Below, in pieces: positions 6,333 through 38,646 of a DNA stretch of 64,000 nt; positions within the stretch are counted from its first letter, which is position 1; the number at the start of each line of letters is the position of its first letter. The stretch comes from Candidatus Yanofskybacteria bacterium (GTDB taxonomy: Bacteria; Patescibacteriota; Minisyncoccia; 2-02-FULL-40-12; IGHO2-01-FULL-4-A): the NCBI GenBank assembly GCA_016185545.1, contig JACPNJ010000002.1, positions 51,299 to 115,298 of the forward strand, written 5' to 3'. The notes under the pieces are model-generated. The model was given only the letters and a program-made list of their open reading frames with translations. It was not told where the DNA came from and did no database searches. The position numbers were made by a program, and so were the translations under genes.

Positions 6333-6335
6333 TTT

Positions 6336-6848
6336 TTAGTTTTGTTTTTTGGCAATAATAATTGTCACTACCGTCTCTTCAGTGCCGGCGTAAATAGTAA
6401 TATTCAGTTTTTCGTCATCGCCCTTGCTTGCAAACAAAGCCATGGAAAGACCGTCTTCTTCTGACTTTACGGTAAAGCCATTGCGCGCCGCATAGTCTTT
6501 CAAAACATCAAAAGTTTCTTTAATATCTTGCCGGGTAACATAAGAGTAAGCGATCAGGTTATAATCGGGATCGGGCGGTTGATTCTGTGAACTCCTGACA
6601 GAGCTTTGCAAGACTCGCACCGGTTTGGGGTCTATGGGCATATCAGATGGGAAACCCTCTGGAAGCTCGTTCCCGAAATTAATCTGATTCTGGGGGTTTA
6701 AAACTTCGACCGGCGGCTTATCCATCAGCACTACTTCATCCGGCTGCCAGCCGATAGGTTTGGATCTAAATTCGGTAATATACAAAAAAACGGCGATTAT
6801 AATCGCAAGAATAATAATCAGGATTAGATTTTTTTTACTTAAAATCAC
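6336..6848 (-). CDS. membrane-anchored hypothetical protein
   Basis: 170 aa; N-terminal TM helix (LILIIILAIIIAVFLYI); no catalytic motifs. Confidence 0.5.
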   Translation of the reverse strand: MILSKKNLILIIILAIIIAVFLYITEFRSKPIGWQPDEVVLMDKPPVEVLNPQNQINFGNELPEGFPSDMPIDPKPVRVLQSSVRSSQNQPPDPDYNLIAYSYVTRQDIKETFDVLKDYAARNGFTVKSEEDGLSMALFASKGDDEKLNITIYAGTEETVVTIIIAKKQN

Positions 6849-6988
6849 TGCTTAAATAATACCACAGTTCATTTATCAATGTTATCCACATAGAAAACAC
6901 ATTTAAATACATGCTATCCGGTTGGTGCAACCCACCTAATACCGAATGCAGTTAAAAAAACCCTGACTCATTAAATCGTTTTACCGAT

Positions 6989-8533: not shown

Positions 8534-8611
8534 GGTTTTTCTCCTTGTTTTGAAAGTACTTTCCTACATATTCCCATATTAGCACAAAAATAAACAAAGG
8601 TCAAATTAAAG

Positions 8612-8662
8612 AGAAACTTAGAGGCTCAACCTCTCAAGAGAGGTTGAGCCTCTAAGTTTCTA
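8612..8662. terminator. ~23-bp stem hairpin gaaacttagaggctcaacctctc/gagaggttgagcctctaagtttc, same palindromic family as 2724..2757
   Basis: inverted repeat read directly; downstream of the metzincin gene. Confidence 0.6.
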
Positions 8663-8686
8663 AGCCGTAGTTTATAGTTTTATGGT

Positions 8687-9097
8687 TTATATGTTCACCT
8701 CAAATGATCTGGTTACACCCCGGTAAGTACCGGTAGATTTAATCGGGAATGCTGCACAATCGGCCTCTATGAACGGGGCATTGGTAGCGCCATTAATAAA
8801 AGTCGCGCCGTTGCTCATAGTCGGCTGCGCGGTTGAACCGACCCTATTAATGTATAAGCACCATTCAATCCCGCTTTCAGCCGCATATAACGCTCCTACT
8901 GAACTTTTGACATCAGAAGACACTCGTATTTTGGGAATAAAAATCGCTGAGAGCGTAAGGCTGATGGTTAACAAAATATCCATTAAGAGTATGGCAAAAA
9001 TAACGGCTACCCCTTCTTGACCAGGTTTTAGGTTTTGGGTTATCCTCCTTCGCATAAAGCTTCGGATGGACACCGTAGGTTTTAGGTTAAAAATCAT
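8687..9097 (-). CDS. hypothetical small membrane protein at the distal end of the pilus locus
   Basis: 136 aa with one TM segment; predicted N-terminus is encoded by heptamer-repeat DNA, so the true start is probably downstream. Confidence 0.35.
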   Translation of the reverse strand: MIFNLKPTVSIRSFMRRRITQNLKPGQEGVAVIFAILLMDILLTISLTLSAIFIPKIRVSSDVKSSVGALYAAESGIEWCLYINRVGSTAQPTMSNGATFINGATNAPFIEADCAAFPIKSTGTYRGVTRSFEVNI

Positions 9098-9152
9098 AAA
9101 TTGAGCAGGTTATAGGTTATAGCAACCCACTCTATTACCTGTCAGCTTTCAC

Positions 9153-9674
9153 CTAATTTGAAAGAAATCTCTGCGATACTGTAGTCTGTATATCTATTGT
9201 CGCCTGCTGTCTGGTTTTGGCACTTCTAAGACTAGCAATAATGGTAACGTGCGGCTGTCGTTGATCGTCAACACTAATACCGGAAGGACAAAACTCTAAA
9301 CGAGTAAATTCAACAGTATTGGAACTTATAACACTATCGGTGCCATTTACTATCCGATGGACTGCATTTCCTGAAAGCGCATAGGTAATGCTTCCATTAA
9401 CCGGATGGGTAATACTCAAAGTATTTACGGGACAATCGGAAGCCGGACCGACAATTTGGCTCACGCGAATTTCTTTGGTCATAAATTCAAGAATAAAACC
9501 GGCATTTTCTACCGCTTGTTGAAGATTAAACGCCCGTCTTTGCAAATCCAAAGAGCTGATAAAAACTCCACCCATTAAAACTGCCAACACAGAAAACAAG
9601 AAAACAACCAAGATGGTTTCAACCAGGGTAAAACCAGCGTTTAGCGTTGAGTGTTTAGCGTTTAGAAATTTCAA
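9153..9674 (-). CDS. prepilin-type minor pilin/pseudopilin
   Basis: N-terminal cleavage/methylation motif GFTLVE followed by a hydrophobic helix. Confidence 0.7.
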   Translation of the reverse strand: MKFLNAKHSTLNAGFTLVETILVVFLFSVLAVLMGGVFISSLDLQRRAFNLQQAVENAGFILEFMTKEIRVSQIVGPASDCPVNTLSITHPVNGSITYALSGNAVHRIVNGTDSVISSNTVEFTRLEFCPSGISVDDQRQPHVTIIASLRSAKTRQQATIDIQTTVSQRFLSN

Positions 9675-9752
9675 TCAAGCTAGCGTTTAACGTTTAGCAT
9701 TTAGCGTTTAGTAAGTTCGACTATACGCTAGCCGCTAATCGCTAATTGCTCT
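9636..9752. repeat. TAGCGTT heptamer tandem array with a complementary GCTAATC arm (hairpin)
   Basis: tagcgtt units repeated more than 8 times, then gctaatcgctaattgc; overlaps the 5' end of the pilin gene. Confidence 0.7.
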
Positions 9753-10256
9753 TTATTTCCAGTTAAAAAGATGCTCCTCCGCGCTGATTGACTTGGACGC
9801 TCCACCACGTTCAATCCAAACTACATCCACAACAATTTTTTTCTCTACATCAGCAACCACGGTGTCAATTTCAATAGTGCGTTTAAATATCGTATCGCTG
9901 CCCATATCATAACTAAAAATACCGCTACCAGGATCTCTTTTTAAATTCGGATTGCTACCCAAGTCAATTAGTGCTTGTGAATCCCATTGAATCCTGTAGG
10001 TGCCATCGGGTATTGATGAACCAAAAGGACCGCCCAAAAACCAGTCTTGGTCACGCAGGTTTCGCACCACTTCAAACCCCTCTTGCGCAAGACCGCTAGC
10101 AATAAAATTATTTTTGATAGCGGTGGCACTTCTGTTGTTCATTGTCAAAATGAAAGTTGTCGCCGTAGAGGCCAAACCAAAAAGAAAAATAGCAATTAGA
10201 ACCTCAATCAACGTAAACCCATTTTTGATTTTTGATTTTTGATTTTTGATTTTCAT
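9753..10256 (-). CDS. prepilin-type minor pilin
   Basis: N-terminal GFTLIEVLIAIFLFGL motif. Confidence 0.7.
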   Translation of the reverse strand: MKIKNQKSKIKNGFTLIEVLIAIFLFGLASTATTFILTMNNRSATAIKNNFIASGLAQEGFEVVRNLRDQDWFLGGPFGSSIPDGTYRIQWDSQALIDLGSNPNLKRDPGSGIFSYDMGSDTIFKRTIEIDTVVADVEKKIVVDVVWIERGGASKSISAEEHLFNWK

Positions 10257-10822
10257 TTAAGATCTATCTGTCCTGACGTAAAAACATTTATTTCCGTGCA
10301 GGTGTTTTGCGCGCAATTATTCTGGTTTTTAAGCTGAATGGTTAAAGTTGCGGGTGGGATATTCAAAGAAGATTTGTTATTTATATATGTCTTCGGATCC
10401 GGTGGTTCAAAGAATATGTCATTAAATGATGAACGAAATTCCATGTTAGTATTGATTAAAATTTTATTTTCCGTGATCGGGTCGCCCGACTGATAGTTGT
10501 GGGTAGCGACCGAAGAACACGGCCCTGAAACTGGCACTGTTTTGACATAAATAAAATAAGAAGTTGGGTTTACATAATGAAAGCCGTAGCCGCATACCAG
10601 GTTACCCTGATAGCGGCTACCGGATAAAGCAAGGGACTGCGCCCTGCGAATATCCGACAAAACCACGGAGGCCGTTTGGACACGGGCGGTCTTACTTGTG
10701 GGCGATGACCTGAAATTTAAAATTAAAACCACTGAAAAAGTGGCAATAATAGCACTTACAACGAGTAACTCTATTATACTAAACCCGCCGTTCCCTGTAA
10801 TTATACCCCTCTCTTTTTTCAA
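10253..10822 (-). CDS. prepilin-type minor pilin
   Basis: N-terminal GFSIIELLVVSAII motif. Confidence 0.65.
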   Translation of the reverse strand: MKKERGIITGNGGFSIIELLVVSAIIATFSVVLILNFRSSPTSKTARVQTASVVLSDIRRAQSLALSGSRYQGNLVCGYGFHYVNPTSYFIYVKTVPVSGPCSSVATHNYQSGDPITENKILINTNMEFRSSFNDIFFEPPDPKTYINNKSSLNIPPATLTIQLKNQNNCAQNTCTEINVFTSGQIDLK

Positions 10823-10825
10823 CGA

Positions 10826-10905
10826 AGGTGTCAGGTGTCAGGTGTCAGGTGTCAGGTTTAATTTTCTGTAACCTGAAACCTGTAACCTGCAACCTAAAAC
10901 CTAAT
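10826..10905. repeat. GTCAGGT x4 heptamer array plus complementary ACCTGAA/ACCTGTA arm (hairpin)
   Basis: ggtgtcaggtgtcaggtgtcaggtgtcagg ... aacctgaaacctgtaacctgcaacct. Confidence 0.7.
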
Positions 10906-11309
10906 TATTCGTATTTTACCTCAATCAAATCTCCGGTTTTAATTTTAATTTTATTTATATCTGCCGTATTGACCGATTTTTTATTCAAATAAAAATTCCA
11001 AGTCAGGTTTCCAGGGTTAGTTGTACCATCTATTTTGGTCAGAACCACGCCGCTATTTTCCTGAATTGTGTACCTTAATTCAAAATCGCCGCCCAATGAA
11101 GAAGAATACAGGGCTTCAAGAATACTCATGTCGGCCATTACGGGACCCTTGAATTTTCTGCTCTTGCCGTTTTCAAAATTTATCACCATCTGCGCTTCGG
11201 CGCTTGCCTCAGGCAAGTTAAACTTAAAATAGAAAAAAACTCCGCCCAAAACTAAAATAGCAACTCCCGCGATCAAACTATTTCTTAATATTTTGTTAAT
11301 CTTACCCAT
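10905..11309 (-). CDS. hypothetical membrane-anchored protein
   Basis: 134 aa; N-terminal TM; 1-nt start/stop overlap with pilD. Confidence 0.45.
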   Translation of the reverse strand: MGKINKILRNSLIAGVAILVLGGVFFYFKFNLPEASAEAQMVINFENGKSRKFKGPVMADMSILEALYSSSLGGDFELRYTIQENSGVVLTKIDGTTNPGNLTWNFYLNKKSVNTADINKIKIKTGDLIEVKYE

Positions 11310-26480: not shown

Positions 26481-27566
26481 TTGCGTTGGGTAAGATCTTT
26501 TATGTATAATAGAGGCATGGCTAAGTTGAGTAATAAATTTAAGGGGAATAAGCGAGTTGTGTTTTCGCACGGTAAGCAGAAAGAGTTTTTAGAAAAAACA
26601 CGATTTTCTTTAGGACTAAACAATGATAATTTCGCTAGATTAATAGGGGTTAGTCCAAGAACTCTAAATGACTGGAAAAGGGAAAAGTTTTATTTGCCTT
26701 TAAATAGCTTAAAAAAATTATGTGACAAGTCGGGTATATCTATGCCGAAGTATCTAGAAACAAAAGACCCATTTTGGTACACTTCACTGGGCGCGCATAA
26801 AGGAGGCATCGCATCTTTTAAAAAATACGGACACATAGGAGGAGATCCCGAATATCGCAAGAAAAAATGGCATGAATGGTGGCAAAGTAGCGGTAGATTC
26901 AGAAAAGATATGATAACTTTTCCTATTAAAGTTATAAAACCGTCCAAATCTAAAGAGCTAGCAGAGTTTGTCGGTATTTTACTAGGAGATGGAGCAATCA
27001 CTAAAAAACAGATTACTATAACTCTTCATAAAGTCGACGATAGGGATTTCACCGATTATATCTGCTACTTGATTGAAAAACTTTTTCATTTAAAACCAGC
27101 TCTTTACGAACGAGAAAGTGTCAATAACATAGTTATTTCCAGAACAGAATTAGTTAGATATTTTGTAAAAAATTTAGGCTTACATATTGGCAGTAAAATC
27201 CGACAACAAGTAGATGTTCCGATGTGGATTAAAAAGTCGGGGATATTTTCTAGGGCATGCTCGAAAGGATTGTTTGATACAGATGGATGTTTTTATATTG
27301 ATAAGCATAAATATAACAACAAAACTTATCTAAATTGTGGTATGAATTTTACAAATCGAGCCCTACCACTCCTTTCTTTTTTTAAAGAAACCTTACAAAA
27401 ATACAATCTCTCCCCTACTCAAAAAACTCATTACAGTATCTTTTTAAGAAGGGAGGAAGATATAATAAAATACTTTGATAAAATAGGGTCGTCTAATCCG
27501 AAACATTATAATAAATTCAATAATTTTTTAATAAATAAACACGGTGAGGTACCGAAGTGGTCATAA
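26481..27566 (+). CDS. HTH (XRE-like) + double-motif LAGLIDADG homing-endonuclease-like protein
   Basis: N-terminal HTH (LGLNNDNFARLIGVSPRTLNDW); two LAGLIDADG-type motifs (LAEFVGILLGDGAI and SKGLFDTDGCFYID); 3' end overlaps tRNA-Ser by 24 nt. Confidence 0.75.
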   Translation: MRWVRSFMYNRGMAKLSNKFKGNKRVVFSHGKQKEFLEKTRFSLGLNNDNFARLIGVSPRTLNDWKREKFYLPLNSLKKLCDKSGISMPKYLETKDPFWYTSLGAHKGGIASFKKYGHIGGDPEYRKKKWHEWWQSSGRFRKDMITFPIKVIKPSKSKELAEFVGILLGDGAITKKQITITLHKVDDRDFTDYICYLIEKLFHLKPALYERESVNNIVISRTELVRYFVKNLGLHIGSKIRQQVDVPMWIKKSGIFSRACSKGLFDTDGCFYIDKHKYNNKTYLNCGMNFTNRALPLLSFFKETLQKYNLSPTQKTHYSIFLRREEDIIKYFDKIGSSNPKHYNKFNNFLINKHGEVPKWS

Positions 27567-27657: not shown

Positions 27658-28353
27658 ATGCTAGTACAAAAATTCGATAAATTTCTACAATCAGTTGACC
27701 TCAAATCCTATCGTGATCAGTATAGGCCTATTAAAATTGTAGAAATGGATATGCCCAAAGAGGTTCAAGCTATCAATATGCTTTACAAAGTATATTGGGA
27801 CCAAAAGAAATTCTTGTCTTTTGAAGATTTTTACAAAGAGTACTTAAATTCTCTAAAAACAGAAATTGAATCCTTCAGACAAAGAACAACGATGTGTAAA
27901 GATTGTTTTTATCGAGGATTGCCCGCAAGAATTTATCGTACTTGGGCAAGTATTATCACTCAAATCCACGCTGGTTATGTAGCTGAGTCGGTTTTTGGCG
28001 AAGGTACAATTGCGATGTCAGGTGAGCTTGATCATCAAGGAGCTGATTTTCAAGTTAAATATAGAGGGAAGATTTTAAACTACCAAGTTAAAAAGAAATC
28101 ATTTAGTGGAGAAGTGAGGCGTGGTAAGGGTGGAGTTAAAAACAAAATCGATGGAGAATTTATTGATATTAACTATGAAGTTCCAAGTGGTGATTATTTC
28201 GAAAATCCAAAGAAAAAAGATGGCACTGATAAATTACCATACGCCAGGTTTATGGCAAATAAAGAATTAGAAAGATTCCCGAATGGTTTTGTGGTTTTTA
28301 CCCCTTATCCTTTTGAACAAAAGAAAAGAGAGATAGATAACTCTCTAAAATAA
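27658..28353 (+). CDS. hypothetical protein; candidate nuclease partner of the adjacent methyltransferase
   Basis: 231 aa; convergent with the MTase gene with a 9-nt 3' overlap; weak PD-(D/E)xK-like segment ELD...DFQVK; function unverified. Confidence 0.35.
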   Translation: MLVQKFDKFLQSVDLKSYRDQYRPIKIVEMDMPKEVQAINMLYKVYWDQKKFLSFEDFYKEYLNSLKTEIESFRQRTTMCKDCFYRGLPARIYRTWASIITQIHAGYVAESVFGEGTIAMSGELDHQGADFQVKYRGKILNYQVKKKSFSGEVRRGKGGVKNKIDGEFIDINYEVPSGDYFENPKKKDGTDKLPYARFMANKELERFPNGFVVFTPYPFEQKKREIDNSLK

Positions 28354-29868
28354 TTTAGCAACGGACTTTTTATCACCTACCATTTTTTCTGCCAGCCTTA
28401 CATAATCAGGATTAATCTCAAAGCCAATATAAGATTGACCTAATTCTTTGGCCGCCGCGCACTCCGAGCCGGTGCCAACGAAAGGCACTAACACAACACC
28501 ATCTTTTTTCGGCATAGCAGATTTTATCAATTTTTTAGATAATTCAAATGGTTTTTGTGTTGGATGCTTCATTATTTCATGTCCATCATGATTTTTTAGT
28601 TGTCGTGGCTCACATACAGAGTCGCAGGTTTTACACAAAAACCATCTTTCATTCATTCCAGCTCCACCGGCGAGGGCAGGAACTTTGATAACATCTCTTG
28701 GTAAAGCTCCACCCTCGTGGGCTTTATAAACGGTTTCCAAACCGCTACTACTGAATCTCCCCAGTGTTCCTTTTCTTACCTTTCCAGCGGCTCCATTTAG
28801 AAATCCCTCTGTATATGGTTCTCTAACATCATCTCTGTTGAAAACAGGTTTATCTTTCCAAGCGCAAATGATAGCTTCATGGCTTCTTTGCCAAAAATTT
28901 AGAGAGGCAACATTTTTATTAGTGTAATGCCATATAAGCCATCTTTTTTGTATAGGAATTTCAACAGAGAGATACGCTAGAATTTCACTAAAACCATAAA
29001 TAAAAATTGTTCCGTTTGGTTTTAGTGTTCTTATGCTTTCGTTTATCCAACTTTTACACCACTCAACATATTCTCCAAGTTCTCGTTTATCTATATTATT
29101 CCCAAAATCCTTTCCGATATTATAAGGTGGATCAATTATGATAACATCACAACTTTCGTCAGGAAGTTTTCTTAATTCTTGAATTGCGTCTCCCAAAATT
29201 ATTTGATTGAGAGATAATTTCTTATCCTTCTTTATTTCTTTTGTTATCGTTATTTCTTCCGCCTGTAATTCCTCTTCGTTTTTAATAACATCAATAACAA
29301 TTCCTTGAATTTTTATGTCTCGATCCCTCCTTATTATAATTGGCTCAAAAGTTTTATTTGCGGGTTGTAGCCGAATATGTCCTCGTTCTTTATAAAATCT
29401 CTTTAGTGTTGCCTCGTGATTGTCTATTAATGCAACAACTCGCTCGCCGTTTTCTGCAACATCTTGCTGTTTTACCAAAACAACATCTCCATCTTGAATA
29501 TTCTCGTCAATCATACTGTTGCCCATTACGCGCAAAGCGTAAAGATTGCCAGCGCTAGGCAATATATTTTTAGGAACAGCAATAAATTCGTCTTGACGAA
29601 TTGCCTCTATTGGCTCCCCAGCGGCGATAGTTCCTAAAAACGGAATTTTGACCATTGGTTTCTTAGAAGCAATGCTGATGGCACGGGCTTTATTTTCTAT
29701 ATTCCCCAAATAACCACCTTCTTTAAGTTTTGAGATATGAAAATGAACAGTTGAAACAGAGGCGAGTTTAAGTCGTTTTCTAATTTCCTCAAATGAAGGA
29801 GAATACCCCTTCTTTTGTGAGTAACTTTCTATGAAGTCGAGGACTTCTTTTTGGCGCTTTGTGAGCAT
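28345..29868 (-). CDS. LexA (HTH + S24 peptidase) fused to an N4/N6 DNA methyltransferase
   Basis: residues ~1-200 are LexA-like (winged HTH; RVMGNSM Ser; ATLKRF Lys); residues ~210-507 are MTase (motif IV DPPY, motif I FVGTGS); single uninterrupted 507-aa ORF. Confidence 0.75.
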   Translation of the reverse strand: MLTKRQKEVLDFIESYSQKKGYSPSFEEIRKRLKLASVSTVHFHISKLKEGGYLGNIENKARAISIASKKPMVKIPFLGTIAAGEPIEAIRQDEFIAVPKNILPSAGNLYALRVMGNSMIDENIQDGDVVLVKQQDVAENGERVVALIDNHEATLKRFYKERGHIRLQPANKTFEPIIIRRDRDIKIQGIVIDVIKNEEELQAEEITITKEIKKDKKLSLNQIILGDAIQELRKLPDESCDVIIIDPPYNIGKDFGNNIDKRELGEYVEWCKSWINESIRTLKPNGTIFIYGFSEILAYLSVEIPIQKRWLIWHYTNKNVASLNFWQRSHEAIICAWKDKPVFNRDDVREPYTEGFLNGAAGKVRKGTLGRFSSSGLETVYKAHEGGALPRDVIKVPALAGGAGMNERWFLCKTCDSVCEPRQLKNHDGHEIMKHPTQKPFELSKKLIKSAMPKKDGVVLVPFVGTGSECAAAKELGQSYIGFEINPDYVRLAEKMVGDKKSVAKLF

Positions 29869-29954: not shown

Positions 29955-30833
29955 ATGGAAGACTCCAATATAGAAATTTCATTTGAACTCTCGGTTTGCC
30001 TTCATTTAGATAAAGAGGCGGTGTTTTTACTTAAAATCAACGAGCGAGATGTAGAGATAAAAACAAACGATGTCATATATGAAAATACTAGATTTGGTCG
30101 GGCACAAAATACAGAAATCTACAGTGATACAGATTCTGGTTTTCGTTACACCAAAATTACAATTTCATTTAAAGATACCAACCCAAAGATACCCCTTGAT
30201 AATTTAATTTTGGCATATAAAGATTTAATACTTGAAAGTGTTAATAAATTTATAGATGCATATCGATTTATTACTGGACGAGTAGCAATTTCCAATATTG
30301 CCTCAATATCAGATTTGTTCGGATTATCGTGTTTTAGACGAAATGCCAAAGGCGGCGGAACTGGAATGATAACTATAAATTTTGGAGGAGTAGGAATTGC
30401 TGGAAAGCAGGTTGCTATGGGACAATTTAAAACAGATCTAGATATTAAAGATAACGAAAAGATGCAGAACCTATTAAAGACAGGAGGGATTCCCCTGGAA
30501 GATCTTTTTATAATGGATGCAAAAAGACATCTTCAAATCGGACATAAAATTCAAGCATTGATTAGCGCAGTTATAGCCACTGAAATTGTTGTTAGATCAA
30601 AAAATAATTGGTTTGTAAGATTTTTGTATAAAGGAAAATTACTAGAATTTAATTTAATAAAAGAACTAAAGTATAAACTTCCGAAAGAAAGTCTATCTAT
30701 AATAATTGGAGGTATAAAAGAAAGAAATCGAGTAATTCATGACGGCAAGAGAGATTTGACGATTGATATTTCTAAGTACATAAAGGAAACAGAAAAAGCA
30801 ATAAATAAATTGAGAACTCCCGTTATTATTTAA
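29955..30833 (+). CDS. hypothetical protein (very AT-rich orphan)
   Basis: 292-aa ORF with no recognisable motifs; sits between the MTase locus and the DGR-like cassette. Confidence 0.5.
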   Translation: MEDSNIEISFELSVCLHLDKEAVFLLKINERDVEIKTNDVIYENTRFGRAQNTEIYSDTDSGFRYTKITISFKDTNPKIPLDNLILAYKDLILESVNKFIDAYRFITGRVAISNIASISDLFGLSCFRRNAKGGGTGMITINFGGVGIAGKQVAMGQFKTDLDIKDNEKMQNLLKTGGIPLEDLFIMDAKRHLQIGHKIQALISAVIATEIVVRSKNNWFVRFLYKGKLLEFNLIKELKYKLPKESLSIIIGGIKERNRVIHDGKRDLTIDISKYIKETEKAINKLRTPVII

Positions 30834-30991
30834 CAGAATAATCGACTGCGTTTTTGCCCTTATCTGACTTCGGCTTTGGTACCTCAAACCACTCGGGATG
30901 CACTTTGTAGATAGCCCTCAATTCTTGTATACTCCTATCAATATCCTTGAATTTAAACCACGTTTTCGGTTCTAACTTGCGGACATCGTCC

Positions 30992-31069
30992 CCGCCAAGT
31001 CGAGATAGGTTATCCCGCTGGAGGAGCGTCGATAACATAAAACCATCTAACGGTGGTTTTATGTTATCG
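30992..31069. repeat. boundary motif M1 (ccgccaagtcgagataggttatcccgctggagga) plus 16-bp perfect-stem hairpin (cgataacataaaacca/tggttttatgttatcg)
   Basis: a second copy of the motif sits at 38787..38820 with a different hairpin. Confidence 0.5.
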
Positions 31070-31122
31070 TTTGTAGTAATAGATTAACCAAATATTTTCT
31101 GATACTATAAAAATAACAACTT

Positions 31123-31222
31123 AGCCTAAACCTGCTTAACGGCTGGCATGGCACCAAACCACCTGCATACCAAACTTGTCGTTTGGCTTCCACACATGTG
31201 GTTATAGAGGAAACTCTATAAG
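31123..31222 (+). repeat. boundary element R1 (agcctaaacct ... ggcatggcac ... cacctgcat-hairpin-cacatgtggt), imperfect direct repeat of R2
   Basis: shared blocks with 38205..38313 read directly; possible structured ncRNA or att-like site. Confidence 0.45.
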
Positions 31223-31695
31223 AGAGCTTCTGCTCTCAGCCAGACGACTTTTTTATTGCTTGTTTAATCGAAAAAAGATCTGATTTTCAAGATCTTGCTG
31301 AAGAATAAAAGAATTACTATGACTTAAGATCCCCATATAGGAATGGATGGTATGGTCAAGTGACTCATAAGACAACGACCCTTGGTTTAAAAGATTCTCC
31401 CCCGAATTTTACCTGGTAGCAGTCCTTTAGTTTTCTCGGGACATCTACGCTGAAATAAAACACGTAGTTTCGTAGTTTTTACTACTTTCCGGCCACGCCA
31501 CTTCTTATAGCCAGGGCCATAAGAACTCCGGTGGATATCAAAAAGAGGAGGTTCGTAAGATTAAACCAGCCTGAGCCGGGCCCAATCTCTATTAACAAAA
31601 CTCCATGACATTATCACATAAAATACCCAGCCATAAAAGGTCTGGTAAAATTCTTCTTTAGGCTGTATATTTATATGTAAAAGTCCAATCTCACT

Positions 31696-32523
31696 ATGCC
31701 GTTCGAAGCCTATAAAATCTACGAAGAATACGAGCCGGACAAATTTAAAACATCAACCCAGAAAAAGGTTGAGCAGGCTTTAGATACCGCTAAAAAAGAA
31801 GGGCTGGTACCGGAGGGCAAAGAGATTAACATCGAGTTCGACGAGGCAAGAGAGATATTCGGCAAAGATTTTCTAGGTCCGGAAGCTATCAAGACCACAT
31901 ACGGAATAGAACTTACCCCGGATGAATTGCAAGAAATTGAGAATATACCATTTACCAGAGAAGAATTAGAACAAGCCAAACAACTGGGCATGATGTTAGT
32001 TCTTCGAGTGCCAAATATAGGCGAGGGCAAGGAAGCCAAACCTCTAACCATTGATCGAATCCGTGAGAAGTTTTCTGGCGGTGATACTTTTGGCGATCCC
32101 AAGAAAAAGAAGAAGAAAATGTTTTATCGAAGCAAAGGTGATGGGTGGTTTGATAAGGAAAAGTTTGCTCTCGAAGGAACTCCCAAGCTTGGCTGGGGCC
32201 TAGTAATGAAATCTGTCTTGCCTGACTCACTGAGCAAGAATTGGGATCAACAAGAGGAAGTACTAAAAAACTGGGCTAAGCAAAATAATATTGATCCGGC
32301 GTTAGTTAAACGCAGGACTCCTGTAGAAATTGCCTATGATACATTTCTCTACTATGGAGAGAATAAAGAAACTCTCTTAGAAGATAAGTGGGACTGGTCA
32401 GGCGTGCAGTCTTCCGGCGGCTACTTCGTCTTCGTTGGCGGCTTCGACTCGGGCGGTCTCTTCGTCAGCTACGATTCCCGCGACAATGCGGGTTCGAATC
32501 TCGGTGTCTGCCCCTCTCGGTAG
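31696..32523 (+). CDS. cassette paralog P1 (275 aa) with a hypervariable GC-rich C-terminal region
   Basis: first ~110 nt identical in all three paralogs; conserved end LGVCPSR; variable region at 32413..32502. Confidence 0.7.
   Translation: MPFEAYKIYEEYEPDKFKTSTQKKVEQALDTAKKEGLVPEGKEINIEFDEAREIFGKDFLGPEAIKTTYGIELTPDELQEIENIPFTREELEQAKQLGMMLVLRVPNIGEGKEAKPLTIDRIREKFSGGDTFGDPKKKKKKMFYRSKGDGWFDKEKFALEGTPKLGWGLVMKSVLPDSLSKNWDQQEEVLKNWAKQNNIDPALVKRRTPVEIAYDTFLYYGENKETLLEDKWDWSGVQSSGGYFVFVGGFDSGGLFVSYDSRDNAGSNLGVCPSR
32413..32502 (+). other. candidate DGR variable region (VR1)
   Basis: A-depleted, GC-rich 90-nt block; differs from VR2/VR3 only at codon positions 1-2 of NNC/NNT codons. Confidence 0.55.
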
Positions 32524-32590
32524 TTTCGCCTTGGGCGCTTGGATGCCTTGATCCTTATTGATCCCTTGGGGTATTCGAAAAAAAATTTAA
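32503..32590 (+). repeat. conserved post-VR element (IMH-like): ggtgtctgcccctctcggtag tttcgccttggg.gcttggat.ccttgat.cttattg
   Basis: about 80% identical after all three paralogs, including the non-coding part. Confidence 0.5.
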
Positions 32591-32629
32591 GACTGGTAAA
32601 ATCTTTATATAACTTGTAACATTTATTAT

Positions 32630-34315
32630 ATGTCTAACTCAAAAGAATCACTTCCCCCAATGCCAAATATGCCCACTACTCCTGAACGAATCATCGAGGA
32701 GAAGGGCATCGATAAAACAAAGAAGAAGGAAAAACTTTCTCCAGAGCAGCTTGAAGCTAGAGTCCAAGAACTTATGGACTTATCGGCCGCTCGAGCCGAA
32801 GCTTCTAAGCATATTCGTGAGTCTTGGGGCGGTTTGACCAAAAGCGAGCGAGAAGAACTGGCAGAGAAGGGAGATGATGCCACAGCAGCTCAATTCGACG
32901 CACTCAAAGTTGATCCGGAGCTGGCAGAATTTTCTGAAAATGTCCTTGCTGAATACGATAAGCGTATTCAAGAGCTTGGCAGCAACCCCAAGGTCATGGA
33001 GGCCTATAATGAACGCTTTGAAGGAATGAAAGACGCCTTAGCTAAAGTTCTCGAGTACGAACATCTCCATAAAGAGCTTGATGCAATCATCAGCAGTGAA
33101 CAGAAACTTTGTCTGATGTATGAAAAGGTCGGACGTTCGCCTGGGCCGATTGAGCGAACCAAACTGACTGATCTGGTAAAACGTAAAGAAGAATTACAAA
33201 AAGAAATAAACGGTTTTAAATTGGATTCGGCATCGATCAATATGCTTCGACGCCGAGAGGTTCGGGGTATGCAGCGAGATTTGGAGCGTTACAACTTTGC
33301 TGAAACTGAATCCCGCACCGAACTCATACGAGAAGTCTTGCCTGACTTGCTTCATGGCGCACCGATTCTGTTTCAAGGCGAGACTGGCTCTGGTAAAACC
33401 CAGTTGGCTAAATATATTTCTCATAGATTCCTTGGCCATGAAGTTTCGCCGATTTCTATCTCTGAACAAATAAAAGAGTCCCAAATCATGGGTCGGGTCA
33501 CCTTGAAAGAAGGTGCCACCGATTTTTTGTATTCTGAATTAGTCAAAAGCATGAAGGAGGGTCGCCCAGTAATTATGGATGAAATCAATTTAATGCCCCA
33601 TGAATTTCAGGGCATTCTCAACGAGATTTTCCAACTACGAATTGGCAGCACTTGGAAACACCCATCCACTGGCGAATCAATTAAGATTGCTCCCGGTTTT
33701 GTGATCTTTGCTACCGCCAACCTTAAGTCAGAGCGCTACAAACAACGTTACGAACTTGATGTTGCTACTCTTCGTCGTTTCATCGGTGGTGCCGGTGCGC
33801 GTGAAATCCACTACTTAGATTTAGGCAAGAAAAGCAAAGAGGGAGAATATATCGCACCCGAGACTCTTAAGATTCTAGCCTCGGTATTGGCAGATCGAAA
33901 CGGCAATATTACTTGGAGCGAACAAGAATCGCCTCAAAAACTTGATGAGCTAAAGAGATTTGTGGGTGCTTGCCGTAAAATCCAAGAAGACTTTACCTTG
34001 AGCGTCCGAGAAGGTTCTGAAGACTCATTGGCTCGAGGCGACAAGCTGGCTTTCAAAGAACTGGTCATCACCCTCAAGGATCAGATTGAGATTATGAAAG
34101 CATGGAAAGCGTCTGGTTTTGTCGAACCGCTAGAAAGTATTGTTCTGCGAGAATTCTTCAGAAAAGCTGAAATCAGCGGTCGAGCCGCCAAAGACCGAGA
34201 AAATATGGTCAAAGTATTTATGGCCAATAAGTTTTTCCAAGATACTAAACCTGAAGATTTTAATATCCAAGGCCTATCGGCTAAAACAGTTCGCCAATGG
34301 CAAGGAAAAGAATAA
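32630..34315 (+). CDS. MoxR-like AAA+ ATPase with an N-terminal coiled-coil extension
   Basis: Walker A GETGSGKT; Walker B VIMDEIN; sensor FATANL; ATLRRF. Confidence 0.8.
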   Translation: MSNSKESLPPMPNMPTTPERIIEEKGIDKTKKKEKLSPEQLEARVQELMDLSAARAEASKHIRESWGGLTKSEREELAEKGDDATAAQFDALKVDPELAEFSENVLAEYDKRIQELGSNPKVMEAYNERFEGMKDALAKVLEYEHLHKELDAIISSEQKLCLMYEKVGRSPGPIERTKLTDLVKRKEELQKEINGFKLDSASINMLRRREVRGMQRDLERYNFAETESRTELIREVLPDLLHGAPILFQGETGSGKTQLAKYISHRFLGHEVSPISISEQIKESQIMGRVTLKEGATDFLYSELVKSMKEGRPVIMDEINLMPHEFQGILNEIFQLRIGSTWKHPSTGESIKIAPGFVIFATANLKSERYKQRYELDVATLRRFIGGAGAREIHYLDLGKKSKEGEYIAPETLKILASVLADRNGNITWSEQESPQKLDELKRFVGACRKIQEDFTLSVREGSEDSLARGDKLAFKELVITLKDQIEIMKAWKASGFVEPLESIVLREFFRKAEISGRAAKDRENMVKVFMANKFFQDTKPEDFNIQGLSAKTVRQWQGKE

Positions 34316-35134
34316 ATGCCATTTGAAGCCTACAAAATCTACGAAGAATACGAACCGGATAAATTCAAGACCTCAACCCAGAAAAAGGTTGAGCAAGCTC
34401 TCGATACCGCTAAAAAAGAAGGACTAGTTCCGGAGGCAAAAGAGGCCCATGTTGAATTTGAAGAAGCCCAAGAAATATTTGGGCTAGATTTTCTTGGTCC
34501 CGAATCTGTTGGGACAACTTTTGGTGTTGAGTTTTCCCAAGAAGAGCAAAATCAGATAGAAAACATCCCATTTACTCGTGAAGAATTAGAAAAAGCCAAA
34601 GAGCTTGGAATGATGCTGGTTTTGCGAGTGCCACGAGTTGGCAAGGACAAGACTGCTAAGCCCCTTACGATCAAGCAAATGCGAGGTGCATTCAAAGGAG
34701 AAGATAAACTTGGCGATCCTAAAAAGAAAAAATCCCAAATCTTCTTCGATCAGGATTGGTATAACAAGGAAGAATTCGCCACCAAAGACACTCCATCCCT
34801 TGGTTGGGGTCTTGTTACGAAGAAAATACTAGAAGAATCAAGAAGTAAAAACTGGGATCAGCAACAGGAAGTACTTAAAAAGTGGGCAGAAGAAAATGGC
34901 ATTGACCCCACTTCAATTAAACGCCGAACTCCAGTTGAGATAGCTTACGATACACTTCTTTATTATGGCTCGAACAAGGAGTCATTGTTAACAGATACCT
35001 GGGACTGGTCCGGCGTGCAGTCATCCGACGGCGGCTTCGTCGGCGTTGGCTACTTCGACTCGGTCGGTCTCAGCGTCTACGACAATTCCCGCGGCAATGC
35101 GGATTCGGATCTCGGTGTCTGCCCCTCCCGGTAG
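34316..35134 (+). CDS. cassette paralog P2 (272 aa) with a hypervariable C-terminal region
   Basis: start abuts the MoxR stop; same N-terminus and LGVCPSR end as P1 and P3. Confidence 0.7.
   Translation: MPFEAYKIYEEYEPDKFKTSTQKKVEQALDTAKKEGLVPEAKEAHVEFEEAQEIFGLDFLGPESVGTTFGVEFSQEEQNQIENIPFTREELEKAKELGMMLVLRVPRVGKDKTAKPLTIKQMRGAFKGEDKLGDPKKKKSQIFFDQDWYNKEEFATKDTPSLGWGLVTKKILEESRSKNWDQQQEVLKKWAEENGIDPTSIKRRTPVEIAYDTLLYYGSNKESLLTDTWDWSGVQSSDGGFVGVGYFDSVGLSVYDNSRGNADSDLGVCPSR
35034..35123 (+). other. candidate DGR variable region (VR2)
   Basis: see VR1. Confidence 0.55.
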
Positions 35135-35214
35135 TTTCGCCTTGGGAGCTTGGATCCCTTGATTCTTATTGGTTCCATTGGGTATTCGAAAAATTTTTAT
35201 ATAACTACACCTAA

Positions 35215-37209
35215 ATGCCAGAATCATTTCCCATAAATAGAATAGAAACTCCTCAAGACGAACCTAAACCAGAGGTTCCAAAGCAGGAAAGCGAAATTGA
35301 TGCTCAAGCAGTTGAGGAATTTTTAAATAAGGAAACTGAAATACTAGGAGCTTACGGGTTACGAGGTGATATTACACTGGAACGAGGGAATGGCGGTTGG
35401 GCATTTGATTTTCAGAATCGAAAGTTAATTTACGATCCAAAGTTCTTCATAGAACGTGGCTATAGCCTCCAGGAAACTCTCTTTGCCACCACTCACGAAC
35501 TCATGGCTCACTACGGTGAGCTTATGCGTGATCCGGAGCTTGTCTTAAAGGAAGCTAAGAGATATAGCGCAAAAGGTCACCTCCATCTTTTATACAATAT
35601 CTTTGAAGATGTGTTGGGCAACAGACGTATTGTTGCCGAATTGCCGTTCTTAGAAGAAACTCGCGAATCGCTTTATCGAGAAAAGATGTTTCCACCGACT
35701 GACTACACTGATAAATCTTCTCATGTTCAGTTTACTTATGGTTTTATTCGCCAGATGATGGTGCCTGGAGAGGCAGTACAACTTGGGCCGGAGGCGCAGG
35801 CCGCTTTGGATAAGCTGAGAAGCTTTGGTTCAGATAAAATAGATATCCTTGATCTAGTTACTACACCAACCATTGACCCCAAAGATCGCTTTCAAATAAT
35901 GCGAACAATTGTTGAACCTATTTACCGAGAACTCTATGAAAAGGATTTAGAAGAAGAAAAGAAAAGCGGCAAAAGCAAGGATCAGGGCGAAGGGTCACCC
36001 ACGGATACTCAAGTTTCTGATAAACCTCAACAAGGCCAAGGTTCTGGCCAAGATAAGAAAAAATGGTGGCAAAGAAAAAAGGAAACACCCCAAGAAGGAA
36101 AAGGTAAAGAGGAACAACCTGGCAAAGGTGGGGATAAAAAATCCAGTGAACGAGCCGCTAGAGAAGCGGCTGAAAAGAAATTTAAGAAAGAATATAAAAC
36201 CTATCACGACGGTCATCCGGAACCCATAACTCATGCCGAAGAAAAGGAGATCAAGAAGTTGATGGAAGAAATAGTTGCTAAAAAGGGCGGACAACCTACT
36301 CTAGAGCAAAATATTCTTGAGGAATGGGCTCGTGAGCATGGAGTCAGCGCCGAGGATGTTCTTGGCTATCGCAAAGAGTATGAAGAGATCGCTCCCCTAG
36401 TAGCTGAGCTAAGGGAAGTTTTTAAGAAGATCATTGCCAGGAGATTAAAAGAACGATGGCAGTTTTCGCCTCAGCTCAAAACAGAAGGCGAAGAACTAGC
36501 CGAAGATACGCTAGTCGACTCTTCAATTGAATCTCGAGCCGGAGGCCAGCCAAGGGCATTTAGAGAGATTGAGAGACATAAACGAGAGCAGGAGGGCTAC
36601 GGCATGCTTGATATGTCTTTGGTTAATGATTTATCCGGTTCTATGAATGACGGGGATGGCAGTAAGCTTGAGATGGACCGCAAGAGCAAACTCCTATTCT
36701 TGGAATCTCTGGCCGATTTTCAAAAAGAAATAGAAGAAGCCGAATTTGAAAGTGGTGTTTCGTTGGGTCTTCAAGTTAGAACCGAAACCAGAGCTTTTGG
36801 CGATTTTGGAGATGTAGAATTAAAGTCGTTATCACCTGATCTTTCTGAAAAAGATAGAATTGGGATTTGGAAAAAAATGCATAAAGCTGGTGGCGGTACG
36901 CCGGATTATCTTTCTCTTGAAGAAGTTTTAAACTCAATTACTCCTGAACAAGAAAAGGAGTTAAGAGAGAAATTAAGAAGAAAAGTTATCGTCGTACTTT
37001 CTGATGGTGAAAGCCAAGATTCAGGGAAAGTTCAGGCTGTTTTACTCCAGTTAAGGAATAAGGGGGTTATTTGTTTAGGATTGGGCATGACTGAATCAGG
37101 TCAAGCTGTTAAAGAAACATATAAACCGGATGCCGAAGTAATAACAGATATCAAGGCGTTGCCTCAAGCGGTTCAAAAAGTTATTCTAAAATATACCCAA
37201 GATTTGTAA
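35215..37209 (+). CDS. zincin-like (HExxH) + low-complexity linker + von Willebrand factor A domain protein
   Basis: HELMAH motif near residue 95; Lys/Glu/Gly-rich linker; MIDAS DxSGS (DLSGSMND) and VVLSDGES. Confidence 0.75.
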   Translation: MPESFPINRIETPQDEPKPEVPKQESEIDAQAVEEFLNKETEILGAYGLRGDITLERGNGGWAFDFQNRKLIYDPKFFIERGYSLQETLFATTHELMAHYGELMRDPELVLKEAKRYSAKGHLHLLYNIFEDVLGNRRIVAELPFLEETRESLYREKMFPPTDYTDKSSHVQFTYGFIRQMMVPGEAVQLGPEAQAALDKLRSFGSDKIDILDLVTTPTIDPKDRFQIMRTIVEPIYRELYEKDLEEEKKSGKSKDQGEGSPTDTQVSDKPQQGQGSGQDKKKWWQRKKETPQEGKGKEEQPGKGGDKKSSERAAREAAEKKFKKEYKTYHDGHPEPITHAEEKEIKKLMEEIVAKKGGQPTLEQNILEEWAREHGVSAEDVLGYRKEYEEIAPLVAELREVFKKIIARRLKERWQFSPQLKTEGEELAEDTLVDSSIESRAGGQPRAFREIERHKREQEGYGMLDMSLVNDLSGSMNDGDGSKLEMDRKSKLLFLESLADFQKEIEEAEFESGVSLGLQVRTETRAFGDFGDVELKSLSPDLSEKDRIGIWKKMHKAGGGTPDYLSLEEVLNSITPEQEKELREKLRRKVIVVLSDGESQDSGKVQAVLLQLRNKGVICLGLGMTESGQAVKETYKPDAEVITDIKALPQAVQKVILKYTQDL

Positions 37210-37210
37210 T

Positions 37211-38038
37211 ATGCCATTTGAAGCCTACAAAATATACGAAGAATACGAACCAGATAAATACAAAACCTCAACCCAGAAAAAGGTTGAGCAGGCCTTGGAT
37301 ACTGCTAAAAAAGAGGGCCTGATACCCGAAGCCAAAGAAGTTAATATCGAATTCGACGAAGCCAAAGAAATATTTGGCAAAGACTTTCTCGGCCCCGAAG
37401 CAATTCAAACTACTTTCGGCGTAGAATTAACACCAGACGAGCTCAAAGAAGTAGAAGACGTTCCCTTTACCAGAGAAGAACTTGAGCAAGCAAAACAACT
37501 CGGCATGATGCTCGTTTTAAGAGTACCTAGACTTGGCGAAGGCAAAACAGAGCGTCCTCTAACAATTGATTCTGCCAGAGAACTATTTACCAAGGGCGAT
37601 TCCTTGGGTGATCCTAAGAAAAAGAAACAAAAAGTATTCTATAGTAAAAAGGGCGAGAGTTGGTACAACAATGAAAAGTTTGTGACCCAAGACACTCCTA
37701 AACTCGGCTGGGGTCTAGTCATGAAATCGGTATTACCAGATTCGCTAAGCAAGAATTGGGACCAGCAGGAAGAAGTTCTCAAGAAGTGGGCAAAGGATAA
37801 TAACATAGACCCTGCCCTAGTTAAAAGAAGAACTCCTGTAGAAATTGCCTACGATACCCTTATATATTACGGCGAGAATAAAGAATCATTGCTAAAGAAT
37901 AGATACGACTGGTCTGGCGTGCAGTCTTCCGGCGGCGACTTCGTCTTCGTTGGCCACTTCGACTCGGACGGTCTCCTCGTCAGCCACGATTCCCGCGGCA
38001 TTGCGCATTCGTATCTCGGTGTCTGCCCCTCTCGGTAG
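37211..38038 (+). CDS. cassette paralog P3 (275 aa) with a hypervariable C-terminal region
   Basis: ATG 2 nt after the vWA stop; same architecture as P1 and P2. Confidence 0.7.
   Translation: MPFEAYKIYEEYEPDKYKTSTQKKVEQALDTAKKEGLIPEAKEVNIEFDEAKEIFGKDFLGPEAIQTTFGVELTPDELKEVEDVPFTREELEQAKQLGMMLVLRVPRLGEGKTERPLTIDSARELFTKGDSLGDPKKKKQKVFYSKKGESWYNNEKFVTQDTPKLGWGLVMKSVLPDSLSKNWDQQEEVLKKWAKDNNIDPALVKRRTPVEIAYDTLIYYGENKESLLKNRYDWSGVQSSGGDFVFVGHFDSDGLLVSHDSRGIAHSYLGVCPSR
37928..38017 (+). other. candidate DGR variable region (VR3)
   Basis: see VR1. Confidence 0.55.
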
Positions 38039-38204
38039 TTTTGTAGGGTGCTTGGGAGCTTGGACCCCTTGATTCTTATTGGTTCTCTTGGGTATTCGAA
38101 AAAATTTTAAGATTCTCTAGTTGGTATCTCATTTTACTAATTAATTGACCTAAGCTAAGGTTGGACGCAATGGTCGTTTTTTGCTATTATTCTCTTAACA
38201 ATTA

Positions 38205-38388: not shown

Positions 38389-38646
38389 ATGAAAAACATT
38401 AAAAAAATTGTTCTTTTCGGTTTTGGAGCATTTGTTCTCCTGGTCGTTGTAATCCTAATAGTTCCTTCTTCTGATAAAAAAGAAGGTGTACAAACAGTAC
38501 AAAATTTACCAAGTGTAAGTCCTAGCGTAAGTGCAAGCCCTGTTGTTAGTAATAAGGCGACTGTAAAAGCAACTCAGAAACCCCAAGCGTCTGGAGAATA
38601 TGCAGTCGTTAAAGTTGTTGACGGTGATACTGTTGATTTAAATTGA
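38389..38646 (+). pseudogene. N-terminal fragment of a secreted thermonuclease (SNase)-like protein
   Basis: signal/TM then YAVVKVVDGDTVDL (SNase N-terminal motif), then a stop after 85 aa; the rest of the domain is absent. Confidence 0.4.

Follow-up and report, generated by a model that had tools for sequence, protein, structure and literature searches.

Domains of the FGS and C-type lectin (CLec) type that are diversified by a diversity-generating retroelement (DGR) and joined to a MoxR ATPase and a von Willebrand factor A (vWA) domain have been described as VMAP-ternary conflict systems (Kaur et al. 2020, PMC7159879), and MoxR-adjacent DGR targets have been described in multicellular bacteria (PNAS 2024, PMC10907252). 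In both cases the diversified domain was proposed to be a sensor or an effector, with the ATPase as a switch. Candidate Phyla Radiation (CPR) bacteria, which PMC7159879 did not count in its multicellularity statistics, show a significant enrichment in DGRs, and the targets usually have no recognisable domains or known role (PMC8144416, Roux et al.). The commonest CPR target, in the lines where PMC10907252 cites Paul et al. 2017, is a fusion of a CLec domain with an AAA ATPase. Here we describe a five-gene cassette from a Candidatus Yanofskybacteria contig, found in a stretch of 64,000 nt (hereafter the window) to which all window-level searches were limited. Three of its genes encode small proteins, P1 to P3, which are almost certainly DGR target proteins that have lost their engine.

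The cassette reads, all on the forward strand, P1 (31696-32523, 275 aa), an ATPase (32630-34315, 561 aa; AAA_5, of the MoxR/midasin/NorQ/CobS class), P2 (34316-35134, 272 aa), a vWA protein (35215-37209, 664 aa; N-terminal HExxxH domain and C-terminal vWA domain) and P3 (37211-38038, 275 aa). The open reading frame (ORF) listing returned all five co-directional genes exactly where a preliminary description of this DNA had placed them. That description also saw correctly that a triplicated, diversified recognition component accompanies a MoxR-class ATPase and a vWA protein with a metal ion-dependent adhesion site (MIDAS), and that P1, P2 and P3 are paralogs (71-80% protein identity between copies). 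The start-to-stop packing it reported holds at two junctions, where the ATPase stop and the P2 ATG are 0 nt apart and the vWA stop and the P3 ATG 1 nt apart (2 nt had been claimed), but gaps of 106 nt and 80 nt separate P1 from the ATPase and P2 from the vWA protein.

As in the VMAP-ternary systems (PMC7159879), a MoxR-class ATPase, a vWA/MIDAS protein and DGR-diversified FGS/CLec domains stand in one neighbourhood. Unlike those systems, the cassette has no detected trypsin, caspase, TIR or adaptor domains, its CLec domains are on separate proteins of 272-275 aa instead of being fused to the vWA domain, its vWA protein has an N-terminal HExxxH domain, and it is carried by a CPR bacterium rather than by a multicellular cyanobacterium or proteobacterium. 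A ternary, NTP-dependent conflict system had been suggested for this locus; the ATPase and the vWA/MIDAS protein fit that description, but the cassette has neither a VMAP component nor a fusion of vWA to FGS or an effector. As far as the account of CPR CLec-AAA fusions in PMC10907252 goes, these share the host group and the tie between an AAA domain and a diversified CLec domain (we found fused relatives at two loci, L030 and L031), whereas in the present cassette the AAA_5 ATPase is encoded on its own and has a vWA/MIDAS protein as an added partner. The arrangement was initially thought to be undescribed. Similar systems do appear in PMC7159879 and PMC10907252, but we found no mention of the present cassette in PMC7159879, and this split form is a variant with features of its own.

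Variable regions of the P genes

The final ~130 nt of P1, P2 and P3 are far more alike in a DNA alignment than the bodies of the genes, and the likeness runs ~35 nt beyond the stop codon (three matches of this C-terminal repeat, compared to zero expected in shuffles). Within the repeat lies a 123-nt core, the variable region (VR), on the forward strand at 32404-32526 in P1 (VR1, including the stop codon and 3 nt), 35015-35137 in P2 (VR2) and 37919-38041 in P3 (VR3). The C-termini had been called hypervariable. They do vary, but not diffusely: 102 positions of the core are invariant across the three VRs and twenty-one are variable. Nineteen of these twenty-one sites occupy the first or second position of a codon, chiefly within NNC or NNT codons, and the other two occupy the third. 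Read from the alignment, this pattern of substitutions is the signature of DGR adenine mutagenesis.

A template repeat (TR) is available from two close relatives, L013 (Candidatus Yanofskybacteria RIFCSPLOWO2_01_FULL_42_49), which is the closest relative by TR, and L040, a metagenome contig that shares both flanks of the window. The L013 TR is identical to the window VR consensus at 120 of 123 positions. The L013/L040 TR matches all of the invariant positions (102/102) and has an adenine at eighteen of the twenty-one variable sites; the three non-adenine sites are substitutions private to P2. Every difference between this TR and VR1 or VR3 is at a TR adenine, and VR2 carries its three substitutions at non-adenine TR positions. 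The adenine-located TR-VR differences expected of a DGR are thus found through orthologous TRs. Within the relatives, mismatches fall at TR adenines in 35/36 cases in L005 and 40/41 in L003, and in 482/510 cases (94.5%) across fifteen TR-bearing loci (nearly all CPR, fourteen with VRs in range).

The ancestral (L013/L040-type) TR encodes VQSSDGNFVNVGNFDSDGLNVNNDSRDNANSNLGVCPSR. It contains twenty-five adenines, and fifteen of its codons, including nine AAY codons, are mutable; mutation cannot reach a stop codon, and the computed repertoire is ~1.6e14 possible protein variants per VR. The closing ~40 codons of each P gene are a VR copied from such a template, with randomisation at the adenines of AAY/GAY codons. 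At non-adenine positions, the TR pattern expected from the window VRs is GTGCAGTC.TCCG.CGGC..CTTCGTC... The VRs end in a GC-rich stretch (GGTGTCTGCCCCTC) and are followed on the forward strand by an element of ~35 nt (CTTGGGAGCTTGGATCCCTTGATTC...; 32527-32560, ~35138-35171 and ~38048-38081) that is conserved among the VR copies and in relatives and is absent from the relatives' TRs. This may be a target-site element. DNA folding predicted no stable hairpin or cruciform 3' of the VRs (z-scores 0.0 to 0.7).

The fold of the proteins agrees with this assignment. P1 consists of a disordered N-terminal tail with a conserved peptide motif, a helical region and an FGE/C-type-lectin-fold domain. Its AlphaFold2 model (38 homologs; pLDDT 85, pTM 0.80, ~43 N-terminal residues disordered) has PvdO, CarF and SUMF2 (scores of 8.9, 8.7 and 8.2) and many C-type lectins as fold relatives, and its top matches include the solved DGR variable proteins TvpA, Mtd and TaqVP (8.6, 7.0 and 6.1). 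Because of this resemblance we consider P1-P3 to be DGR variable proteins, and, as in known targets, their variable region is C-terminal on a CLec/FGE fold. They are like Mtd, TvpA and TaqVP in the AAY-rich TR, the adenine-specific TR-VR differences and the adjacent reverse transcriptase (RT) and bAvd, all seen at orthologous loci. They differ in being small (272-275 aa) and soluble with a conserved disordered N-terminal peptide, and in having two to three copies per locus, interleaved with the ATPase and vWA genes; in addition, the relatives' TR and RT are on the strand opposite avd and the targets, and the window has no RT, avd or TR.

Deletion of the RT, avd and TR

A remnant of the RT gene, comprising the last ~45 codons and the stop codon, is located at 31259-31393 on the reverse strand. 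It was found by tblastn with the L005 RT (58% identity to residues 306-350, E 8e-10), and its frame, ...GSLSYESLDHTIHSYMGILSHSNSFILQQDLENQIFFRLNKQ*, is nearly the same as the C-terminal end of L040's intact RT. Positions 933-1328 of L040 correspond to 30992-31384 of the window and positions 2839-3194 to 31389-31743, with the junction at 31385-31388. The intervening 1,510 bp of L040 (1329-2838) hold RT residues 1 to ~334, avd and the TR, and nothing in the window corresponds to them. Both L040 breakpoints carry GATTAT, and the breakpoints were also mapped against L005 and L003. The junction recurs in an independent Logan contig (L001), which matches the window at 100% identity across the region. 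The VRs of L001, of another contig (L002) and of the window are the same, and the only differences among the three are two single-nucleotide polymorphisms, inside P2 and outside VR2. As these alignments have it, a 1,510-bp deletion removed the RT, avd and TR from the window genome, and it looks recent because the protein sequence of the RT remnant is still nearly identical to that of L040.

Searches of the window for the missing parts agree. A word-7 blastn search for a TR with each VR returned the three VRs only, as did pattern searches for further VR or TR copies with three mismatches allowed; no YxDD motif of an RT was found in ORFs of >=150 codons, and tblastn with Avd gave no match. The window therefore lacks what a complete, autonomous DGR has, an intact RT together with Avd and a TR. 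A metagenome scan for a second cognate TR gave only the TRs of L013 (as L039) and L040, with no trans copy from the window's population. Since the engine has been deleted, the three VRs represent a frozen repertoire, unless a compatible DGR elsewhere acts in trans.

From the 5' ends of the paralogs, the preliminary description had invoked ongoing gene conversion or very recent duplication. The source of the variability is instead a DGR, of a type that CPR/Patescibacteria commonly carry, and relatives have its RT, bAvd and TR directly upstream.

Relatives with an intact DGR

An RVT_1 RT, bAvd and a TR adjoin the cassette in L003, L005-L009, L012-L017, L019, L021, L022, L033 and L040. This core consists of an RT of ~350 aa on the reverse strand, a bAvd of 124 aa on the forward strand and an inverted fourth copy of the repeat, the TR, and it is directly upstream of the P genes or of the full cassette (e.g. 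L005 8081-9659, L003 2590-4166 and L008 3207-4797, each with RT and TR on the reverse strand and avd on the forward strand between them). The targets in these intact relatives are on the strand opposite to the TR. The layout is unusual in that the 5' end of avd overlaps the 5' end of the RT gene by ~15 nt, and because avd is between TR and RT on the opposite strand, a TR-to-RT transcript would run antisense through avd.

ATPase, vWA and P genes co-occur across lineages in permuted orders. L013 has P-vWA-P with RT-Avd-TR kept but no ATPase (7085-10825), L012 has ATPase-P-vWA-P (5426-10825), and L008 has vWA(CobT_C)-P-ATPase-P (5190-10915); the first P gene is missing from L012, L019, L022 and L033. 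L030 (8077-10929) and L031 (3772-6612) encode ~950-aa proteins that match both the ATPase and the P profiles, and these look like AAA-CLec fusions in more distant relatives. Judging from its neighbourhoods, the cassette behaves as a mobile or variable island, as the relatives' contexts are unrelated and often include serine recombinases, methylases or a nuclease. This fits the possibility of a variable island raised in the preliminary description: the cassette is non-syntenic and is found beside recombinases, methylases and restriction genes.

Conserved N-terminus and predicted location of the P proteins

The P family is small, with 130 matches in 5.8 billion clustered proteins, nearly all from Patescibacteria/CPR, and a PDB sequence search with the family gave no match. 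The 5' ends of the three paralogs had been reported as nucleotide-identical, and this is incorrect. The first 111 nt are only 86.5-89.2% identical, and the codon differences are ten to thirteen synonymous compared to zero to one non-synonymous. The peptide encoded here, MPFEAYK.Y.EYEPDKYKTSTQKK, is kept in P homologs that are only ~35% identical overall. The likeness of the 5' ends is, from these comparisons, explained by purifying selection on the peptide motif. Ongoing gene conversion of the 5' ends can be rejected, since identity is 86-89%, the differences are synonymous and the peptide is conserved family-wide. The conserved N-terminal part also contains an invariant E50/D58 motif.

All five components are predicted to be cytoplasmic. 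A hydropathy scan detected no signal peptide or transmembrane (TM)-like hydrophobic segment in any of the five proteins; the maximum 19-residue hydropathy of P1-P3, the ATPase and the vWA protein is <=1.1, and their N-termini are highly charged. This argues against surface variation, which the preliminary description had offered as an alternative. Under that explanation the P proteins would be exported adhesins of an episymbiotic CPR cell, with the ATPase and vWA protein assisting assembly or export. It draws on the proposal that CPR/DPANN DGRs mediate host interactions (in the part of PMC10907252 that cites Paul et al. 2017), on the many adhesins with vWA domains and on a small membrane protein encoded just downstream (38389-38646). 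CPR clade-2 targets, however, are typically without TM or other recognisable domains (PMC8144416), and the vWA domain of the cassette is nearest to the MIDAS domains of intracellular AAA partners, not to adhesin vWA domains. Together with the missing export signals, these observations make us think that surface or host-attachment variation is unlikely.

ATPase and vWA protein

The AAA domain of the ATPase (residues ~244-385) follows an N-terminal extension of ~230 aa. The protein had been recognised as MoxR-like, which its Pfam match (AAA_5, 6.5e-20) and the GETGSGKT, VIMDEIN and ATLRRF motifs legible in the translation support. Its PDB sequence matches are to midasin AAA_5 modules (2e-40) and NorQ (3e-8), and its best phage-family match is PHROG 249, a CobS-like 'porphyrin biosynthesis' family (5e-19). 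PHROGs gave no match for the paralogs or the vWA protein, and an NCBIfam scan of the five proteins gave nothing meaningful.

The vWA protein is made up of the HExxxH domain (~28-254), a disordered linker rich in Lys, Glu and Gly (~254-307), a helical middle and the vWA domain. Both the linker and a C-terminal vWA domain with an intact MIDAS were claimed before, and rightly so: the linker is disordered in the model, the domain matches Pfam VWA (9.5e-6), and MIDAS residues D472, S474, S476, T562 and D597 are invariant in twenty-one homologs. In fold searches the vWA domain is closest to midasin (MDN1/Rea1) MIDAS-UBL complexes and NorD. One vWA homolog matches Pfam CobT, and the L008 version matches CobT_C.

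The N-terminal domain of the vWA protein has no Pfam family. The HExxH motif claimed for it was a miscount, as H94-E-L-M-A-H99 is six residues long and reads HExxxH, so the zincin HExxH pattern is not present in the window protein. The domain belongs to a family of at least 285 cluster representatives and had the same N-terminal placement in all ten members scanned against Pfam, with a C-terminal vWA domain recognisable in seven of the ten. Among 114 members, H94 and E95 are conserved in 99%, H99 and D132 in 97% and N128 in 96%; seventy-two of the 114 have a canonical HExxH at the same position, and the window subfamily is a variant with a one-residue insertion. The model of the domain shows three short strands followed by the motif helix. 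Its profile aligns the strand region and the motif helix to the minigluzincin proabylysin, a weak match (E 0.71). Pfam DUF2201_N ('putative metallopeptidase') is touched by two of twenty N-domain homologs, with a best E of 0.0044, below the Pfam threshold, and the window protein itself does not match it. Proteins of the DUF2201_N/DUF2201 'putative metallopeptidase + VWA-like' type also have an N-terminal HExxH-type domain followed by a vWA-type domain; the window subfamily differs from them in its HExxxH spacing. A zincin identity is plausible for the family and only weakly supported for the window's own domain.

A distant pair was found at L042 (8001-15331), where a 777-aa protein with an HExxH domain and a vWA domain is followed by an 835-aa AAA_5 protein. 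Two further proteins encoded there are of no known family (430 and 333 aa, the latter with hydrophobic segments), and no RT, Avd or CLec target is nearby. As the pair occurs at this locus without a DGR, the ATPase/vWA pair probably existed earlier as a module and went on to recruit DGR targets in CPR; L042 is the single locus on which this is based.

The matches described above, and the intact MIDAS, are shared with midasin (Rea1/MDN1), NorQ-NorD, CbbQ-CbbO and CobS-CobT. In contrast to these systems, the cassette has no known client genes nearby, its presumed clients are DGR-diversified lectin-fold proteins, and its vWA protein adds the HExxxH domain and a long charged linker. We therefore considered whether the pair might be a housekeeping metal-insertion factor or chaperone of the CobS/CobT, NorQ/NorD or CbbQ/CbbO type that matures one defined enzyme; the paralogs would then serve as clients or assembly factors, and the DGR would be incidental. 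The CobS-like phage-family match, the CobT and CobT_C matches of vWA homologs, the presence of NorQ and NorD among the closest solved relatives and the DGR-free pair at L042 all lean this way. However, no CobN, NOR, Rubisco, gas-vesicle or CO-dehydrogenase genes are nearby in the window, and in the CPR subfamily a DGR target array nearly always surrounds the pair. The genomic context also differs in every relative, often with adjacent serine recombinases, and the composition of the cassette is unstable between lineages. With no client operon adjacent and no conserved synteny, a CbbQ/NorQ-type chaperone, which the preliminary description had raised, is improbable.

Proposed mechanism

The explanation that we favour overall, with moderate confidence, is a DGR target array with a deleted engine whose binders are coupled to an ATPase/MIDAS machine. 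In the midasin-UBL, NorQ-NorD, CbbQ-CbbO and CobS-CobT systems, the MIDAS binds an acidic residue of the client and the AAA ring remodels the client. By analogy, the variable proteins would dock on the MIDAS/ATPase machine through their conserved N-terminal part, for which the MPFEAYK.Y.EYEPDKYKTSTQKK tail and the invariant E50/D58 motif are candidate docking elements. The ligand of the diversified lectin-fold face would be cytoplasmic and variable; proteins of phages, of mobile elements or derived from the host are the most plausible candidates. ATP hydrolysis would couple ligand binding to remodelling, to which the HExxxH domain could possibly add cleavage, and the whole would be a sensor-transducer-effector conflict module. 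The proposal parallels the DGR-MoxR sensor-transducer model of PMC10907252. Taken by itself, the coupling of the binders to the ATPase and the vWA/MIDAS protein is a tentative suggestion, which we rate below an even chance.

Several observations weigh against this explanation. The variable proteins are linked to the ATPase and vWA protein by adjacency only, and the absence of the ATPase from L013 means that it can be dispensed with, at least for a time. No VMAP or other known third-component family was found in the five proteins with Pfam, NCBIfam or PADLOC, and PADLOC gave generic AAA matches only, with no model for the paralogs or the vWA protein. The HExxxH spacing may alter or abolish metal (zinc) binding, and vWA matches filled both fold-search lists, leaving the N-terminal domain without a fold assignment. 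For the ligand there are candidate classes only. Finally, a second compatible DGR that acts in trans would mean that the window's VRs are not frozen, and the window covers only 64 kb of the genome.

Following the loss of the engine, the whole cassette could also be a decaying relic, non-functional DNA that is heading for loss. The 1.5-kb deletion, the three non-adenine substitutions in VR2 and the partial losses in relatives (the ATPase in L013, the first P gene in L012) would be expected of such decay. All five ORFs are nonetheless intact and full length, as are the MIDAS, Walker and H/E/H residues, and the ten to thirteen synonymous compared to zero to one non-synonymous differences in the 5' regions indicate purifying selection. 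The RT remnant, nearly identical to the L040 protein, makes the deletion look recent, and a fixed repertoire can stay useful. We thus give decay little credence. Least likely is a phage or mobile-element tropism switch, with the P proteins as prophage receptor-binding proteins like Mtd of the Bordetella phage: serine recombinases, methylases and a nuclease flank many copies, a small terminase is ~7 kb from the L008 copy and one copy is catalogued as an IMG/VR viral contig, but that contig is identical to Yanofskybacteria contig L005, the scan of 2.9 million viral contigs gave only two matches (the other is distant), PHROGs matched neither the paralogs nor the vWA protein, and the genes beside the window cassette included none recognised as structural phage genes.

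A more specific version of the coupled array is a cytoplasmic, DGR-programmable capture-and-remodel device in CPR bacteria. Two to three hypervariable lectin-fold binders would be interchangeable adaptors, and whatever they bind would be delivered to a midasin-like AAA_5/MIDAS unfoldase that has a zincin-like protease built in. We regard this as speculative and rather unlikely. If true, antibody-guided target destruction would have an analogue in prokaryotes, one that differs from the abortive-infection VMAP systems; its targets could be phage, mobile-element or host proteins, and lineages like that of the window would have deleted the mutator and thereby 'locked in' a useful repertoire.

Neighbouring genes

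Upstream of the cassette are a LAGLIDADG/helix-turn-helix (HTH) protein, a TaqI-type restriction enzyme and a LexA-DNA-methylase fusion; IF-2 and RbfA are encoded downstream. The first of these (26481-27566, forward strand) is a 361-aa protein with an N-terminal Cro/C1-type HTH and LAGLIDADG endonuclease motifs, beside the restriction-modification genes. The TaqI-type restriction endonuclease gene (27658-28353, forward strand) is convergent with the methyltransferase gene, with an overlap of 9 nt. The latter (28345-29868, reverse strand) encodes a 507-aa fusion of a complete LexA (DNA-binding domain and S24 peptidase, TIGR00498 3.4e-58) with an N6/N4 DNA methyltransferase, and the two genes may form an SOS-linked restriction-modification system.

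Between the methylase fusion and the RT remnant are ORFs of 292 aa (29955-30833, forward strand) and 70 aa (30826-31038, reverse strand), neither of which has a match in Pfam, NCBIfam, PADLOC or PHROGs. A perfect hairpin with an 18-bp stem and a T-run (31030-31069) stands between the 70-aa ORF and the remnant; its first part is 100% conserved in L040, and it is probably a bidirectional terminator. Across the window, terminator-like sites are at about twice the shuffle expectation (18 compared to 9.5) and promoter-like sites are near expectation, and the promoter/terminator scan gave no site informative for the cassette. The small protein encoded ~350 nt downstream of P3 (38389-38646, forward strand; 85 aa) has one strongly hydrophobic N-terminal segment (hydropathy 3.3) and is also present on L001.

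Significance

As a DGR target array, the cassette is largely explained by known biology. Its new features are the split into two to three small CLec targets, the midasin/NorQ/CobS-like ATPase, the HEx(x)xH-vWA protein, the confinement to CPR and, in the window, a mutator that has been lost. We assume that earlier DGR surveys of CPR may have included the Rifle Yanofskybacteria genomes with this cassette, so that its DGRs may already be catalogued.

In annotations, names can now be given to the 'hypothetical paralogs' and to the RT fragment. The window is a mutator knock-out that arose naturally, its close relatives L040 and L013 keep the mutator, and a comparison of VR variation between them would gauge DGR activity in situ. 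More broadly, the cassette connects the DGR targets of CPR with one particular machine, which consists of an AAA_5 ATPase and a MIDAS/vWA protein that may contain a peptidase domain. It offers a testable hypothesis in which an ATP-driven remodeller has the binders as its adaptors or sensors, and it carries the DGR-MoxR-vWA theme over from multicellular bacteria to ultra-small symbionts.

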